The notes under the pieces are model-generated. The model saw nothing but the letters and a program-made list of their open reading frames with translations. It made no database searches and was not told the origin of the DNA. Of a stretch of 64,000 nt of DNA, positions 6,498 to 38,312 are shown in pieces. Position 1 is the stretch's first letter. Each line of letters begins with the position of its first letter. Made by a program: the position numbers and the translations under genes. Source of the DNA: Escherichia phage BYEP01. The stretch is from the sequence record OR757453.1. One strand, given 5' to 3'.

Positions 6498-8085
<1,588 letters not shown>

Positions 8086-9520: not shown

Positions 9521-10732
<1,212 letters not shown>

Positions 10733-10733
<1 letters not shown>

Positions 10734-30583: not shown

Positions 30584-30599
30584 AAGGGCCGGAGCCCTT
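30584..30599 (-). terminator. terminator-like hairpin after the HNH gene
   Basis: aagggccggagccctt stem-loop between HNH stop and uvsW.1 start. Confidence 0.4.
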
Positions 30600-31290
30600 A
30601 TAAATTAACTGTTTTTCTAAGTATTCTTAGTTTGTACATTGATAATCCAGTAGCTTTAGAAGCATCTTTCATGCATTTATACTTAACACCATTTACTTCT
30701 ATAGGTTTAGCAGCTGGGTTATTAGCTCCTGAATTATCTGGCATGTTATCTTTAATTTTCTGAATAGATTTAGCGGAATGTTTCCTTCCATACATGCCAT
30801 TATTTTTACCTGATTGATTGATAGAATGCAATCTTTTAGCTTCTTCAGTCCATTTTGTTGGGTTCATTCTTTTAGTTTTACTAATTTTACTTCCCCACGT
30901 AATTGGACGATTTTTCATGAGTTTTGACATATATTGTTTATGTTCTTCCGTATGGTGTTTTCCGTAAAATGGATTACCTTCACCTGATTGAAGTTTTGCC
31001 ATTTTACGACGTTCCCAGGCGTAAGATTTATTAACGTGTCTTTCATGAGTATTTGAATTCATTCCCATACATATAACGGCTTTAATTATACCGTAATGGT
31101 TTGGATGAATTTTAGCTAAAAGTTTATGAGCTATAAAATGCTCTTCAGCTGTTAGTTCTACCAAATTACACTTATCATCTGTACCACCCATACATCTAGG
31201 AATTATATGATGAGTTTCAGTGTATCCATTAAGGCGAGCCCGATTCTGGGCTCTATTAATTAAATTATCATATATTAATTTATAATTCAA
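30598..31290 (-). CDS. HNH homing endonuclease, free-standing, between uvsW and uvsW.1
   Basis: 230 aa; YKLIYDNLI…TETHHIIPRCMGGTDDKCNLVELTAEEHFIAHKLL; paralog of 3247-3957 and 49730-50542. Confidence 0.8.
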   Translation of the reverse strand: MNYKLIYDNLINRAQNRARLNGYTETHHIIPRCMGGTDDKCNLVELTAEEHFIAHKLLAKIHPNHYGIIKAVICMGMNSNTHERHVNKSYAWERRKMAKLQSGEGNPFYGKHHTEEHKQYMSKLMKNRPITWGSKISKTKRMNPTKWTEEAKRLHSINQSGKNNGMYGRKHSAKSIQKIKDNMPDNSGANNPAAKPIEVNGVKYKCMKDASKATGLSMYKLRILRKTVNL

Positions 31291-32848: not shown

Positions 32849-33529
32849 ATGATAGATAAAGATTATATTGCAGAGCTGAAGGCTCTTGATGATAATAAAG
32901 AAGCTAAAGCTAAATTAGCTGAATACGCTGAACAGTTTGGTATAAAGGTCAAAAAGAATAAATCTTTTGATAATATCGTTGCTGATATTGAAGAAGCCCT
33001 CCAGAAGCTCGCTAGTGAACCTATGCCAGAGACTGATGGGTTATCTATTAAAGACTTAATTGATGCTGCTGATGCCGCAGACGGATTAAAATATGACGAT
33101 GAAGAAGTCAATCCAGAGGCAGCACTTCTGATTGATTCTCCGGTTAAATCTGACATTAAAATTGAAGTAGTAGAAATGGATAAAATTCCTGAAAATACCG
33201 ATGTTTTGATTGAAGATACTCCTTTTGTTGAAGAAAAATTCGAGCAGGCTGTAGCTGAGATTATTGAATCTGAAAAGCCGTCTGTATTTACTCTTCCGGA
33301 AAACTTTAGTCCGAATCTTCAGCTGATTGGAAAAAATCCAGGATTCTGCACTGTTCCTTGGTGGATTTATCAATGGATAGCTGAAACTCCGGATTGGAAA
33401 TCTCACCCAACTAGTTTTGAACACGCGTCGGCACATCAAACTTTATTTAGCTTAATTTATTACATTAATCGCGACGGATCAGTTCTAATTCGTGAAACAC
33501 GCAACTCTTCTTTCGTAACATTAAAATAA
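32849..33529 (+). CDS. inh: inhibitor of prohead protease (Inh) candidate
   Basis: 226 aa; assigned by size and position between uvsW and hoc. Confidence 0.55.
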   Translation: MIDKDYIAELKALDDNKEAKAKLAEYAEQFGIKVKKNKSFDNIVADIEEALQKLASEPMPETDGLSIKDLIDAADAADGLKYDDEEVNPEAALLIDSPVKSDIKIEVVEMDKIPENTDVLIEDTPFVEEKFEQAVAEIIESEKPSVFTLPENFSPNLQLIGKNPGFCTVPWWIYQWIAETPDWKSHPTSFEHASAHQTLFSLIYYINRDGSVLIRETRNSSFVTLK

Positions 33530-33538
33530 GGATAACTT

Positions 33539-34390
33539 ATGGCTTTTACAGTTGATATAACTCCTAAAACACCTACTGGAGTTATAGATCAGACTCAGCA
33601 GTTTACTGCTACACCCAGTGGTGAAACTGGAGGTGGAACTATTACCTATGCTTGGACTGTAGACGATGTTCCACAAGATGGAGCTGAAGCAACTTTTAGT
33701 TATGTACTAAAAGGACCTGCCGGTCAAAAGACTATTAAAGTAGTTGCAACAAATACACTTTCTGAAGGAGGCCCGGAAACGGCTGAAGCGACAACAACTA
33801 TCACAGTTCAAAATAAGACACAGACAACTACCTTAGCTGTAACTCCTGATAGTCCTGCTGCTGGAGTGATTGGAACTCCTGTTGAATTTACTGCTGCTTT
33901 AGCTTCTCAACCATCAGGCGCATCTGCTACGTATCAATGGTATGTAGATGATTCACAAGTTGGTGGAGAAACTAACTCTACATTTAACTATACTCCAACT
34001 ACAAGTGGAGTAAAAAGAATTAAATGCGTAGCCCAAGTAACAGCAACGGATTACGACGAAAAAACAGTTACTTCTAATGAAGTATCACTGACTGTGAATG
34101 ATAAAGTTGCTCCGGAACCAGAAGGTGAATTACCTTATGTTCATCCTCTTCCACATCGCACTTCAGCTTATATCTGGTGCGGTTGGTGGGTTATGGATGA
34201 AATCCAAAAAATGACTGAAGAAGGTAAAGATTGGAAAACTGAAGATCCAGATAGTAAGTACTACTTGCATCGTTACACTCTTCAGAAGATGATGAAAGAC
34301 TATCCAGAAGTTGATGTCCAAGAATCGCGTAATGGATACATCATTCATAAAACTGCTTTAGAAACTGGTATCATCTATACCTATCCATAA
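33539..34390 (+). CDS. hoc: Hoc outer capsid decoration protein, short form with two Ig-like domains
   Basis: 283 aa; two tandem Ig-like repeats plus conserved C-terminal capsid-binding region (…PYVHPLPHR…IIYTYP). Confidence 0.85.
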   Translation: MAFTVDITPKTPTGVIDQTQQFTATPSGETGGGTITYAWTVDDVPQDGAEATFSYVLKGPAGQKTIKVVATNTLSEGGPETAEATTTITVQNKTQTTTLAVTPDSPAAGVIGTPVEFTAALASQPSGASATYQWYVDDSQVGGETNSTFNYTPTTSGVKRIKCVAQVTATDYDEKTVTSNEVSLTVNDKVAPEPEGELPYVHPLPHRTSAYIWCGWWVMDEIQKMTEEGKDWKTEDPDSKYYLHRYTLQKMMKDYPEVDVQESRNGYIIHKTALETGIIYTYP

Positions 34391-34417: not shown

Positions 34418-34479
34418 ATTTTGAAAGCACACAAAACACAATCAGAAAATGATGTATATAATGGCACCAACTCGATAAC

Positions 34480-34695
34480 ATGAGATTGATTATGAGAACT
34501 GAGGTTGTGGTGTTTACTCTTCATGAGTCTGGAAAGTCATTCATTGAAATTGCTCGTGAATTAAACTTACAGGCAAAAGAAGTGGCTGTATTATGGGCTC
34601 GAGCTATGACTGCTAAGAATAAATTTGAAACTCGAGAAAAAGTTGTCTATAGAAAAAGACATATCAATAAAAAGGTGAAAAATGGAACAGTATGA
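34480..34695 (+). CDS. hypothetical small protein
   Basis: 71-aa ORF. Confidence 0.35.
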   Translation: MRLIMRTEVVVFTLHESGKSFIEIARELNLQAKEVAVLWARAMTAKNKFETREKVVYRKRHINKKVKNGTV

Positions 34696-34960
34696 TCTTT
34701 ATGAAAATGAATCTTTTGCTAATCAATTACGCGAAAAAGCACTTAAAAGTAAACAGTTTAAACTAGAGTGTTTTATTAAAGATTTTTCGGAACTTGCTAA
34801 TAAAGCAGCTGAACAAGGTAAAACACATTTTAATTATTATTGTATTGCTCGTGATAAATTGATTACTGAAGAAATTGGTGATTGGCTGAGAAAAGAAGGA
34901 TTTAGCTTTAAAGTCAATAGTGATCAGCGTGATGGTGATTGGTTAGAAATTACATTTTGA
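34682..34960 (+). CDS. hypothetical small protein
   Basis: 92-aa ORF. Confidence 0.35.
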   Translation: MEQYDLYENESFANQLREKALKSKQFKLECFIKDFSELANKAAEQGKTHFNYYCIARDKLITEEIGDWLRKEGFSFKVNSDQRDGDWLEITF

Positions 34961-34969
34961 GGATTAATT

Positions 34970-35350
34970 ATGTTTAAAAAGTATAGCAGTCTTGAAAATC
35001 ATTACAATTCTAAATTCATTGAAAAACTTTACAGTTTAGGATTGACTGGCGGCGAATGGGTAGCTCGTGAAAAGATTCATGGCACAAATTTCTTACTGAT
35101 TATTGAACACGATAAAGCAACTTGTGCTAAACGTACTGGACCGATTCTTCCTGCTGAAGATTTCTTTGGGTACGAAATTATTCTAAAGAATTACGCTGAT
35201 TCCATTAAAGCAGTACAAGATATTTTGGAAGAAACTTCTCGTGAAGGTATTACTCTAACTCAAGCGGATAATCCTTCTTTGATTAAAAAGGAATTAGTTA
35301 AAATGGTACAAGATGTACTTCGTCCGGCTTGGATTGAATTGGTAAGTTAA
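34970..35350 (+). CDS. rnlB: truncated RNA ligase 2-like ORF (motif I KIHGTNF retained; rest of nucleotidyltransferase core absent)
   Basis: 126 aa starting [20 protein letters not shown]… with ligase motif I (EKIHGTN); far too short for the ~330-aa ligase. Confidence 0.6.
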
Positions 35351-35355
35351 ATAAA

Positions 35356-35375
35356 AAGGGACCTTTCGGTCCCTT
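35356..35375. terminator. bidirectional terminator hairpin
   Basis: aagggacctttcggtccctt between convergent rnlB-like ORF and gene 24. Confidence 0.6.
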
Positions 35376-35379
35376 TGTT

Positions 35380-36663
35380 TTATTCATCAACGATAATTTT
35401 TGGTAATTTAACACCTAATAAAACAGACAAATCTGAACGACCCGCCATTTTATCCATGTCTCCACCATCAATTATTCTTGCTTCTTTTTCATCTTTTGCT
35501 ACAGTGTAAGGATTTGCTGATAAAGCATATCTAACTAATAAACCGATAGACGGTTGTAAGCTTTCTGGATCAACTACAACTTTAAATGCACCTACATGTT
35601 CAGGGTCATCTAAGTCGAGACCTTCTGTATACGGAGCATAGAAAATTGATCCGACAATTTCTTTTTCGCCAATATTTTCTACCACACCTACGATTACATA
35701 ATCTAATGGGCTGTTAGTATCGCAATAAAGCGGTAAACCATTAGCTAGGAACCCGTAGGCATTTTGTGAAAGATATTTGTCATCTTCTGGTTTATGTTTT
35801 AACCAACCTGATGCAGCAAGAATCGCAGCGGCACGAGCTGAAGCAACACAGAACGTTGCTGTATAAGTTGATTCTTTCTGGATATGTGAAACCATTTCAC
35901 ATACCATTCGGTATAATGAACGACCAGCTTCAGGTGCAGATGCATAACTCAAATCAATGAATCCAGTGTCAGTAATTCCTGTAACTTTATAGCGTTTTGA
36001 CACTGTAATCAAAGACTGTAGAATATCTTTATTGATTTCATCCGCCATTTCAGTTGCAAGCAAATCTTCCAAGAAATTAGGAGCATCGAATCCATTTGCT
36101 TCTAAATCTTGCGCTAATTCAACCGTGATGCCAGTTTTAAGTTTACGAGATTTAACTGCGGTTTGCCATTTATTAATCTGGAATCTAGCATCAGCAATTT
36201 CGCTATCAGAGCTTTCAAATTTGCTCGTTGACGCAGCGTCAGAAAATAGACGAACCTTTAAAAGAACAATTGCAATCTGAAGAGCTAGTTCTAAATCGCT
36301 TTCTTCAATGGTAGCAAATGGTGTATCTTCTAATACTTTATAAACGATATTATTATATTTGAATAAATCGCCTTTATTGAGAGTTAATTTAGACTCTTCT
36401 GTTAATTCTGTGATTTGTTCTCGGTCTACATACCCAGCTTCGCCAGCGTAAGTAGCACCAGTTTTAAATGTAAATTCGTTATCTGGGTTAAGGTATTTGA
36501 TACCGTAAAAAGCAGCAACAGGTTGATTAGTTCTTTGCGTTGCTACAATGTCAGAATATATTAATTTAGTGGTAGCGCGAGTCAAAGCAACGAGATTTGG
36601 GCGACCGATTGAGTTGCTATTCGTTGTGGTTGATTCGCGCAGAAGTTCGTTGATTTTAGCCAT
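35380..36663 (-). CDS. 24: capsid vertex protein (gene 24 product)
   Basis: 427 aa; paralogous to gp23 fold region; matches T4 gp24 from memory. Confidence 0.88.
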   Translation of the reverse strand: MAKINELLRESTTTNSNSIGRPNLVALTRATTKLIYSDIVATQRTNQPVAAFYGIKYLNPDNEFTFKTGATYAGEAGYVDREQITELTEESKLTLNKGDLFKYNNIVYKVLEDTPFATIEESDLELALQIAIVLLKVRLFSDAASTSKFESSDSEIADARFQINKWQTAVKSRKLKTGITVELAQDLEANGFDAPNFLEDLLATEMADEINKDILQSLITVSKRYKVTGITDTGFIDLSYASAPEAGRSLYRMVCEMVSHIQKESTYTATFCVASARAAAILAASGWLKHKPEDDKYLSQNAYGFLANGLPLYCDTNSPLDYVIVGVVENIGEKEIVGSIFYAPYTEGLDLDDPEHVGAFKVVVDPESLQPSIGLLVRYALSANPYTVAKDEKEARIIDGGDMDKMAGRSDLSVLLGVKLPKIIVDE

Positions 36664-36746: not shown

Positions 36747-38312
36747 TTAGATACCTTTAACATATACACGGCGGAAGTAAGCGTTTTTACCAAGGCTATT
36801 CAGAATAGAAGGCATACCGCTCTGGATGCGAGAAGCCGGAGCCTGAGCAGCGGATTCTGCAAATGGGTTGATACCGATACCGTAACGAGTTTTGAATCCC
36901 ATTACTGGTTGGAAGTTCTTCGGATCGGAACCACGCAGCGGAGTCAGAGCTACATATGGAGCATAGTAAATACCAGCATCCATTTCGTTCGGACCTTTAT
37001 AACCTACAGTGAAATAATCCTGTTTAGCATACTGGTCGATATATACACGGTATTTACCACCCAGAACACCAGCAAATACTGACTTGGTAGTATCAGTGTT
37101 AAAGCCGGTAGCCAGACCCTGTGCAGCATAAGAAATGCCAGTATCAACTGAAGCCAGAACGTTAACTACGTTACGGGAAGCGATAATGAAGTTACCTTCA
37201 CCACGACCAGTCTGACGAGCAATTTCAACTGCTTCTTTGTCAATCTGGAACAACAGAGCTTTAAAGGATTCACCCGCCCAGCGAGCACCACGAATATCAA
37301 TCGGATCCTGGAAGTCAAATACACCAGCTTTAGAACCCGGAGTCAGGGTCATACCAGATTTACCAACCTGAGCGGAGTAGTTAATCCAATCAACAACTTC
37401 ACGGTTGATTTCCAGCATGATTTCGGTAGCCAGAATACCAGACAGTTCAGCATCAGCATCCATACCGTGAACAGCGCGGAGGTCTTGTGCTAATTCGATA
37501 GAGTAAGCAGCTTTCAGCTGACGAGATTTAGCTTCGATAACTTGTTTATCGATACGGAAGCCCATTTCATTCCATGGATTATCGGTAGAACCATTGAAAC
37601 TTTCCTGAAGTTCAGCGATAGAAGTAGCCATACCTTCAGCGATTTCTACCAATGCACCAGCTTCCATTTGTTTCTTAATTTCAGCATCTAATTTAGCTGC
37701 ATCAGTTGCGCTTGCACTAATTGTTACTTGAGCAGAAGCTTGCAGATACACAGTACCAGTGTCCTGGAAGAAGTGAGTATAGATATCACCTGCTGTGGTT
37801 TGTGTGCTAGCAGCCAGAGCTGTGAATTTCTTAGCAGCACCCTGACCAGAGAACATTGCATCTGGACCATACATTGGGTGGAATGCTTCTTTAGCACCAG
37901 AAGCGACCGGGTCTTTACCGTATACTGCACGCAGTGCGAATACCTGGCCAGTCGGGCTGTTCATCGGCTGAACACCGCAAATATCGAAAGCAATCAGGTT
38001 AGGAATAGCACGACGTACCATACCCATAACAGCTGGGCCAATCTGAGTTACTGCGCCAGAAGTCTGACCTGCAGCGATGTTGGTAGCATTGTAACCGTGG
38101 TCACCACCGATTTCAGCTTCTGTTAAGAAAGAACCGAACGCCTGAGCAATTTTTTCGTCTTTGTACTCTGGAGCTGTCTGGAAATCTTTTTCCTGGTTTT
38201 CAAAGATTTTAGCGATAATCGCTTGTTTGCTATTAGCAATTTCCGGTAAACCTTCACCTTCCAGTAATGGCTTCCATTTGTTCAAAAGTTCAGCTTTAGT
38301 TTTGATAGTCAT
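36747..38312 (-). CDS. 23: major capsid protein (gene 23 product)
   Basis: 521 aa; matches T4 gp23 from memory (MTIKTKAELLNKWKPLLEGEG…). Confidence 0.95.
   Translation of the reverse strand: MTIKTKAELLNKWKPLLEGEGLPEIANSKQAIIAKIFENQEKDFQTAPEYKDEKIAQAFGSFLTEAEIGGDHGYNATNIAAGQTSGAVTQIGPAVMGMVRRAIPNLIAFDICGVQPMNSPTGQVFALRAVYGKDPVASGAKEAFHPMYGPDAMFSGQGAAKKFTALAASTQTTAGDIYTHFFQDTGTVYLQASAQVTISASATDAAKLDAEIKKQMEAGALVEIAEGMATSIAELQESFNGSTDNPWNEMGFRIDKQVIEAKSRQLKAAYSIELAQDLRAVHGMDADAELSGILATEIMLEINREVVDWINYSAQVGKSGMTLTPGSKAGVFDFQDPIDIRGARWAGESFKALLFQIDKEAVEIARQTGRGEGNFIIASRNVVNVLASVDTGISYAAQGLATGFNTDTTKSVFAGVLGGKYRVYIDQYAKQDYFTVGYKGPNEMDAGIYYAPYVALTPLRGSDPKNFQPVMGFKTRYGIGINPFAESAAQAPASRIQSGMPSILNSLGKNAYFRRVYVKGI

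Follow-up and report, generated by a model that had tools for sequence, protein, structure and literature searches.

Escherichia phage BYEP01 very probably carries a derived loss-of-function allele of rnlB (gene 24.1), the gene for RNA ligase 2 (Rnl2), that arose through a 624-bp deletion between two short direct repeats. The allele lies in the window, the whole stretch of 64,000 nucleotides from sequence record OR757453.1 that was analysed, where it forms a 126-codon open reading frame (ORF) from ATG to TAA at exactly 34970-35350 on the plus strand. Exactly 624 nt (208 codons) of full-length rnlB are missing, and the remaining codons specify the beginning and the end of Rnl2 in a single frame. 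The same allele was found on a separately assembled contig, and its deletion junction is otherwise absent from the sequence collections that were searched.

The window is a segment of a Tequatrovirus (T4-like) genome, reversed in orientation relative to T4 coordinates, and shares about 97% identity with its closest GenBank phage matches across 24 kb. The gene arrangement around rnlB is the same as that annotated in T4 and in CrRp10, with genes 24 and 23 on the minus strand converging on the plus-strand genes inh-hoc-24.3-24.2-rnlB. The locus, together with the genes for RNA ligase 1 and polynucleotide kinase/phosphatase, is laid out as follows.

6961-8085, plus strand: rnlA (RNA ligase 1), intact, 374 aa, 98.4% identical to T4
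9828-10733, plus strand: pseT (polynucleotide kinase/phosphatase), intact, 301 aa, 94.4% identical to T4
32849-33529, plus strand: inh
33539-34390, plus strand: hoc
34480-34695, plus strand: gene 24.3
34682-34960, plus strand: gene 24.2
34959-34962, plus strand: GAGG ribosome-binding site, read from the sequence, 7 nt before the ATG of rnlB
34970-35350, plus strand: truncated rnlB ORF, a fusion of Rnl2 residues 1-85 and 294-334, 126 codons plus TAA
35355-35376, both strands: bidirectional hairpin terminator between rnlB and gene 24, with a 9-bp stem and a T run on both strands
35380-36663, minus strand: gene 24
36747-38312, minus strand: gene 23

The GAGG site overlaps the TGA stop codon of gene 24.2, as it does in T4 and CrRp10. 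Since this ribosome-binding site, the 24.2 stop and the terminator are all unchanged, a polar effect of the deletion on the neighbouring genes is not expected. With the start codon also untouched, the 126-aa polypeptide is probably still made. No second rnlB-like sequence was found in the window. The first-pass annotation had regarded rnlA and pseT as intact, and both proved to be uninterrupted; to judge from these two reading frames, the Rnl1/Pnkp tRNA-repair pair of the phage is unaffected. Two small differences from related genomes were noted at the edges of the locus. The terminator loop at 35364-35367 reads TTTC here and in CrRp10 and the reverse complement GAAA in T4 and in the second carrier described below (locus L004), with an otherwise identical stem. 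Read from its first ATG, gene 24.3 (DUF2774) encodes 71 aa; the T4 annotation has 56 aa and the gene call in the second carrier 67 aa, which is probably a difference in start-site annotation.

The identity of the ORF is clear from both of its ends. In a phmmer search against the PDB, ORF residues 1-89 aligned with residues 1-89 of T4 RNA ligase 2 (2hvq; E 1e-51), and ORF residues 81-126 aligned with the last 46 residues of the same chain at 46/46 identities (E 4e-21); nothing in the ORF corresponded to the part of Rnl2 between these N- and C-terminal alignments. The beginning of the ORF, quoted in the first-pass annotation as a ligase-like stretch reading EKIHGTNF, indeed contains motif I, with EKIHGTN at residues 34-40. 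The length given there for T4 Rnl2, about 334 aa, is likewise correct, rnlB being 1005 nt and 334 aa in both T4 and CrRp10. The first 85 residues of the ORF correspond to T4 Rnl2 residues 1-85, and the remaining 41 (86-126) match Rnl2 residues 294-334 without a single difference, so that the suspected likeness of the last 40 or so residues to the Rnl2 tail amounts to full identity. Because the ORF and rnlB are nearly identical at the DNA level, chance resemblance is not an issue. The ORF lies between 24.2 and the gene 24 terminator and is colinear with full-length rnlB; this conserved position and colinear DNA identity mark it as a remnant of the rnlB orthologue by descent. A protein homology search with the 126-aa query retrieved short fragments only and no full-length Rnl2, and the full-length homologues used for comparison were drawn from IMG/VR loci.

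To determine the extent and the endpoints of the deletion, the ORF was anchored at each end in turn and compared base by base with rnlB of T4 and of CrRp10, MAFFT having misplaced the large gap. The parts of the ORF that bear on the deletion and its consequences, all on the plus strand, are listed below.

34970-35224: 5' segment, rnlB nt 1-255 (codons 1-85), with motifs I and Ia, from the alignment and published motif positions (PMC3149579)
35072-35074: codon of K35 (motif I)
35093-35095: codon 42, TTA (Leu)
35108-35110: codon 47, CAC (His)
35213-35230: hybrid 18-nt imperfect direct repeat, GT[A/T]CAAGATATT[A/T]TGGAA
35216-35224: deletion junction, the 9-nt exact microhomology CAAGATATT, ORF nt 247-255
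35225-35350: 3' segment, rnlB nt 880-1005 (codons 294-334 plus stop), protein identical to T4

Counted from its start, the ORF tracks rnlB as far as nt 255, the first left-anchored mismatch being at nt 256, and tracks the 3' end from ORF nt 247 onward, the last right-anchored mismatch being at nt 246. The two stretches thus overlap in 9 nt, which places the crossover inside CAAGATATT. Full-length rnlB has two copies of this 9-mer, at nt 247-255 and nt 871-879, each copy nested in an 18-nt imperfect repeat with 16/18 positions matching. The repeat in the window is a hybrid that has the left A of the upstream copy and the right T of the downstream copy. Both copies encode VQDI in one reading frame; direct repeats encoding VQDI had been proposed as the possible endpoints of an in-frame internal deletion, and both the deletion and the repeats are borne out, the missing part being Rnl2 residues 86-293 (equivalently 82-289). 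With the two copies in the same frame, the loss of 624 nt is necessarily in frame, and since this outcome is automatic, the open reading frame is no evidence of selection. The same size difference is seen on a larger scale: the best 60 GenBank phage matches to window 34600-35500 all fell into two pieces, spanning about 1525 bp compared with 901 bp here.

The microhomology at the junction is unlikely to be accidental. The CrRp10-type rnlB contains no exact repeat of at least 10 nt and only eight 9-mer repeats, and among 200,000 simulated random deletions in this gene, a junction microhomology of at least 9 nt was obtained with P of about 2e-4. The CAAGATATT repeat is also the top-ranked direct-repeat family in the full-length rnlB of locus L006. 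The junction therefore has the hallmark of a deletion formed at short direct repeats by slippage or illegitimate recombination. Deletions in T4 classically arise between such repeats. The likeness to the classical T4 rII deletion spectra lies in endpoints within a short exact direct repeat, retention of one copy and the lack of filler bases; the rII deletions, however, are laboratory-selected mutants, whereas the rnlB of the window is a natural allele of an accessory gene.

The deletion removes most of what makes Rnl2 a ligase. The N-terminal adenylyltransferase domain of Rnl2 comprises residues 1-243 and contains six motifs, in which AMP is bound to K35 (motif I), the adenine stacks on F119 (motif IIIa) and the phosphate contacts K225 and K227 (motif V) (PMC3149579). 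The C-terminal domain (residues 244 onward, approximately 244-334) is required for step 2 of ligation (PMC3149579, PMC3884662). After the positions of the catalytic residues had been verified in the T4 Rnl2 sequence, motif I (KxxG, with K35) and motif Ia (CAKRTGP, with R55) were found to be kept in the ORF, while motifs III (E99), IIIa (F119/D120), IV (E204/K209) and V (K225/K227) all fall within the deleted residues 86-293. The C-terminal domain is incomplete as well, its first 50 residues (244-293) being gone and its last 41 being left. In Pfam, only stubs of the two ligase domains were matched, both below the gathering score: PF09414 (RNA_ligase) at 25.4 bits against a cut-off of 27, with profile positions 2-39 of 171 covered, and PF18043 (T4_Rnl2_C) at 17.3 bits against a cut-off of 27, with profile positions 46-81 of 82 covered. 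An AlphaFold2 model of the 126-aa protein gave a mean pLDDT of 59 and a pTM of 0.40; since the underlying alignment was shallow, with 17 sequences, this low confidence counts only weakly as evidence that the protein misfolds.

With four of six motifs missing and no nucleotide-binding pocket, both adenylylation and nick sealing are predicted to be lost, and the missing motifs argue strongly that the 126-aa product should not be able to act as a ligase. The inactivation of rnlB that had been surmised for this phage is supported to this extent. T4 Rnl2 itself (gp24.1; PDB 2hvq, 1s68) is encoded at the same locus and in the same gene order; its residues 1-85 are about 96% identical to those of the ORF, including motif I (KIHGTN) and motif Ia, and its last 41 residues are identical. 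The ORF differs from it in being without residues 86-293, in the substitution S42L at an invariant position and in its predicted inactivity. The laboratory truncation Rnl2(1-249), known as 'Rnl2tr', resembles the ORF in being shortened and in keeping the N-terminus with K35. Unlike the ORF, which keeps only about one-third of the adenylyltransferase domain, Rnl2tr retains the whole of it (1-243) and can carry out steps 1 and 3 (PMC3149579). Thus, the behaviour of Rnl2tr does not predict the activity of the ORF.

Large deletions in rnlB are exceptional. Of the 1374 phage records in which tblastn found an Rnl2 homologue, 1371 matched over at least 80% of its length, and the gene in these is thus essentially full length. 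The deletion junction is absent from all GenBank phage records matching this stretch of rnlB (515/515), and it was not found in IMG/VR, JGI metagenomes, complete E. coli genomes or GTDB genomes. Other carriers surfaced only by exact-protein look-ups. Shortened rnlB ORFs of 68-238 aa were also seen in other T4-like genomes (loci L035 and L039; proteins P0002, P0004, P0019 and P0021). Those in UTI-E4 (113 aa), vB_Eco_EH2 (92 aa) and the IMG/VR loci L035 and L039, all on contigs of genome length, are short N-terminal Rnl2 ORFs that, unlike the ORF of the window, end in out-of-frame tails, which suggests frameshifts; a 68-aa fragment in BYEP02 has no such tail. Among these other short ORFs, there is neither an in-frame N-to-C fusion nor a shared junction, and they could be frameshift pseudogenes, cut ORFs or sequencing errors. 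The deletion described here is an ordinary kind of mutation, microhomology-mediated and in an accessory gene, and yet it is rare.

A second carrier was found in the Logan contig SRR29048506_3209 (locus L004), which encodes the exact 126-aa protein. Over window positions 34465-35363 (899 bp), its DNA matches that of the window at every base, whereas the flanks diverge by 2-4% and, in one patch of gene 23, by 10-15%. The contig shares both private substitutions of the allele, S42L and R47H, and has a full-length hoc of 376 aa, the hoc of the window being 279 bp shorter. The finding of one allele in two diverged backgrounds points to common descent or recombinational transfer rather than to recurrence or assembler error. 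Independent recurrence of the deletion in the two genomes was specifically rejected, because they have both private substitutions and 899 identical bases in common. The contig was separately assembled, although the laboratory or the sample of the Logan run may not be independent. An identical protein has been deposited for Escherichia phage BYEP01 under the name 'RNA ligase' (WPK17859.1). This phage (OR757453.1) was plaque-purified from swine wastewater, sequenced by Illumina and assembled with SPAdes, and is reported to have a 10-min latent period and a burst size of about 70 (PMC12951479). RNA ligase receives no mention in the paper that describes it (PMC12951479).

The retained 381 nt differ from CrRp10, the closest full-length allele, at 4 positions, 2 of them synonymous and 2 nonsynonymous (S42L and R47H). 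The full-length homologues compared, 34 sequences from T4 and IMG/VR with identities as low as 43%, all have Ser at position 42, which directly follows motif I. At position 47, close relatives have Arg and distant ones R, K, Q, P or G, and His was not seen among the 34 homologues. No GenBank phage record matched window 35050-35150 at 99% or more, which indicates that S42L and R47H are private to this allele. At 2:2, the synonymous-to-nonsynonymous ratio is shifted in the expected direction from the 22:2 seen for these codons when T4 is compared with CrRp10, but the difference is not significant (Fisher p = 0.086). The remnant appears to be drifting under relaxed constraint, for which the contrast in substitutions is only suggestive.

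The history that best fits these observations starts from an ancestor with a full-length, CrRp10-like rnlB. Illegitimate recombination or replication slippage between the in-frame copies of CAAGATATT at nt 247-255 and nt 871-879 would have dropped 624 bp and thereby fused codons 1-85 to codons 294-334. The resulting 126-aa product would have motifs I and Ia only; its pocket could not form, and the ligase would be inactive. The remnant would then be free to drift, as the change of Ser42 to Leu at an otherwise invariant site may illustrate. The phage would tolerate the loss of Rnl2, in keeping with the presence of the allele in two diverged backgrounds and the deposition of the protein for a plaque-purified isolate.

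A different view of the allele is that the loss of Rnl2 is adaptive, for example by evading a host defence able to sense Rnl2 or what it produces, or that the fusion acts as a decoy, and that the allele has spread among co-circulating Tequatroviruses by recombination. This is improbable, but if true, it would explain an identical 899-bp tract in backgrounds 2-4% apart, despite the retention of the gene in 1371/1374 records. Only slightly less credible is the broader proposal that selection maintains the allele, either because the 126-aa fusion has gained a new function, for instance that of a decoy, of a dominant-negative factor or of a binding module, or because the loss of Rnl2 is of advantage. 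The intact ORF, ribosome-binding site and terminator are compatible with it, the identical tract in two diverged backgrounds fits recombinational spread, and the loss is notable in a gene that is otherwise kept. However, repeats that lie in the same frame lead to an in-frame deletion in any case, the invariant Ser42 has been replaced by Leu and the predicted structure is of low confidence. In addition, no family of similar short fusions exists among the hits, the other short ones being frameshifted or cut, and the allele is present in only one or two genomes.

An assembly or sequencing artefact, in which the phage has a full-length rnlB whose repeat was collapsed by the assembler, is very unlikely. 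Such an error might be suspected from the absence of the junction from the 515 phage records and from the IMG/VR, JGI metagenome, E. coli and GTDB collections, and from the assembly of BYEP01 from short reads with SPAdes. A 9-nt repeat, however, is far below the length of assembler k-mers or 150-nt reads and cannot be collapsed. Moreover, the same junction is present in the separately assembled Logan contig, with flanks that differ by 2-4% and a hoc that differs by 279 bp, and the allele has two substitutions of its own. That the ORF belongs to a distinct, naturally short protein family resembling Rnl2 at the N-terminus only, the scenario held out in the first-pass annotation as fatal to a deletion, is ruled out: no point in its support was found, and it is contradicted by the DNA, which to either side of a single junction is colinear and nearly identical with full-length rnlB (CrRp10 differs at 4 of 381 nt), and by the conserved order 24.3, 24.2, rnlB, terminator, gene 24.

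Loss of rnlB by repeat-mediated deletion, the reading preferred here, bears on a protein of uncertain purpose. The biological role of T4 Rnl2 was called unknown by its investigators in 2013 (PMC3884662), and no later paper settling this role was found in a literature search. As a natural rnlB null in which rnlA and pseT are intact, this viable and otherwise ordinary Tequatrovirus could be of use as a comparison strain in the search for hosts or defence systems in which Rnl2 matters. The allele also calls for caution in annotation, the deposited remnant being named simply 'RNA ligase'. Despite its name, the RnlB antitoxin of E. coli is unrelated to phage rnlB.

Comparison of the window with related genomes brought out further differences outside rnlB. 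A 230-aa ORF at 30598-31290 on the minus strand, which adjoins uvsW, has NUMOD3 motifs and an HNH-like N-terminus and probably encodes a homing endonuclease; it is wholly missing from the otherwise colinear L004. The hoc gene at 33539-34390 encodes 283 aa instead of 376, its third Ig-like domain (93 codons, 279 bp) being missing in frame relative to T4 and L004. At this second junction, near 34097-34102, the ten best GenBank phage matches all fell into two pieces with 279 extra bases, so that none of them shares the hoc form of the window, and no clean microhomology was visible against the available references. Finally, the window and L004 show 164 differences over 6 kb, and 52 of these are concentrated within 400 bp of gene 23, at 37600-38000, with none in the neighbouring stretches, a distribution that marks this part of the major capsid gene as a mosaic, hypervariable segment.
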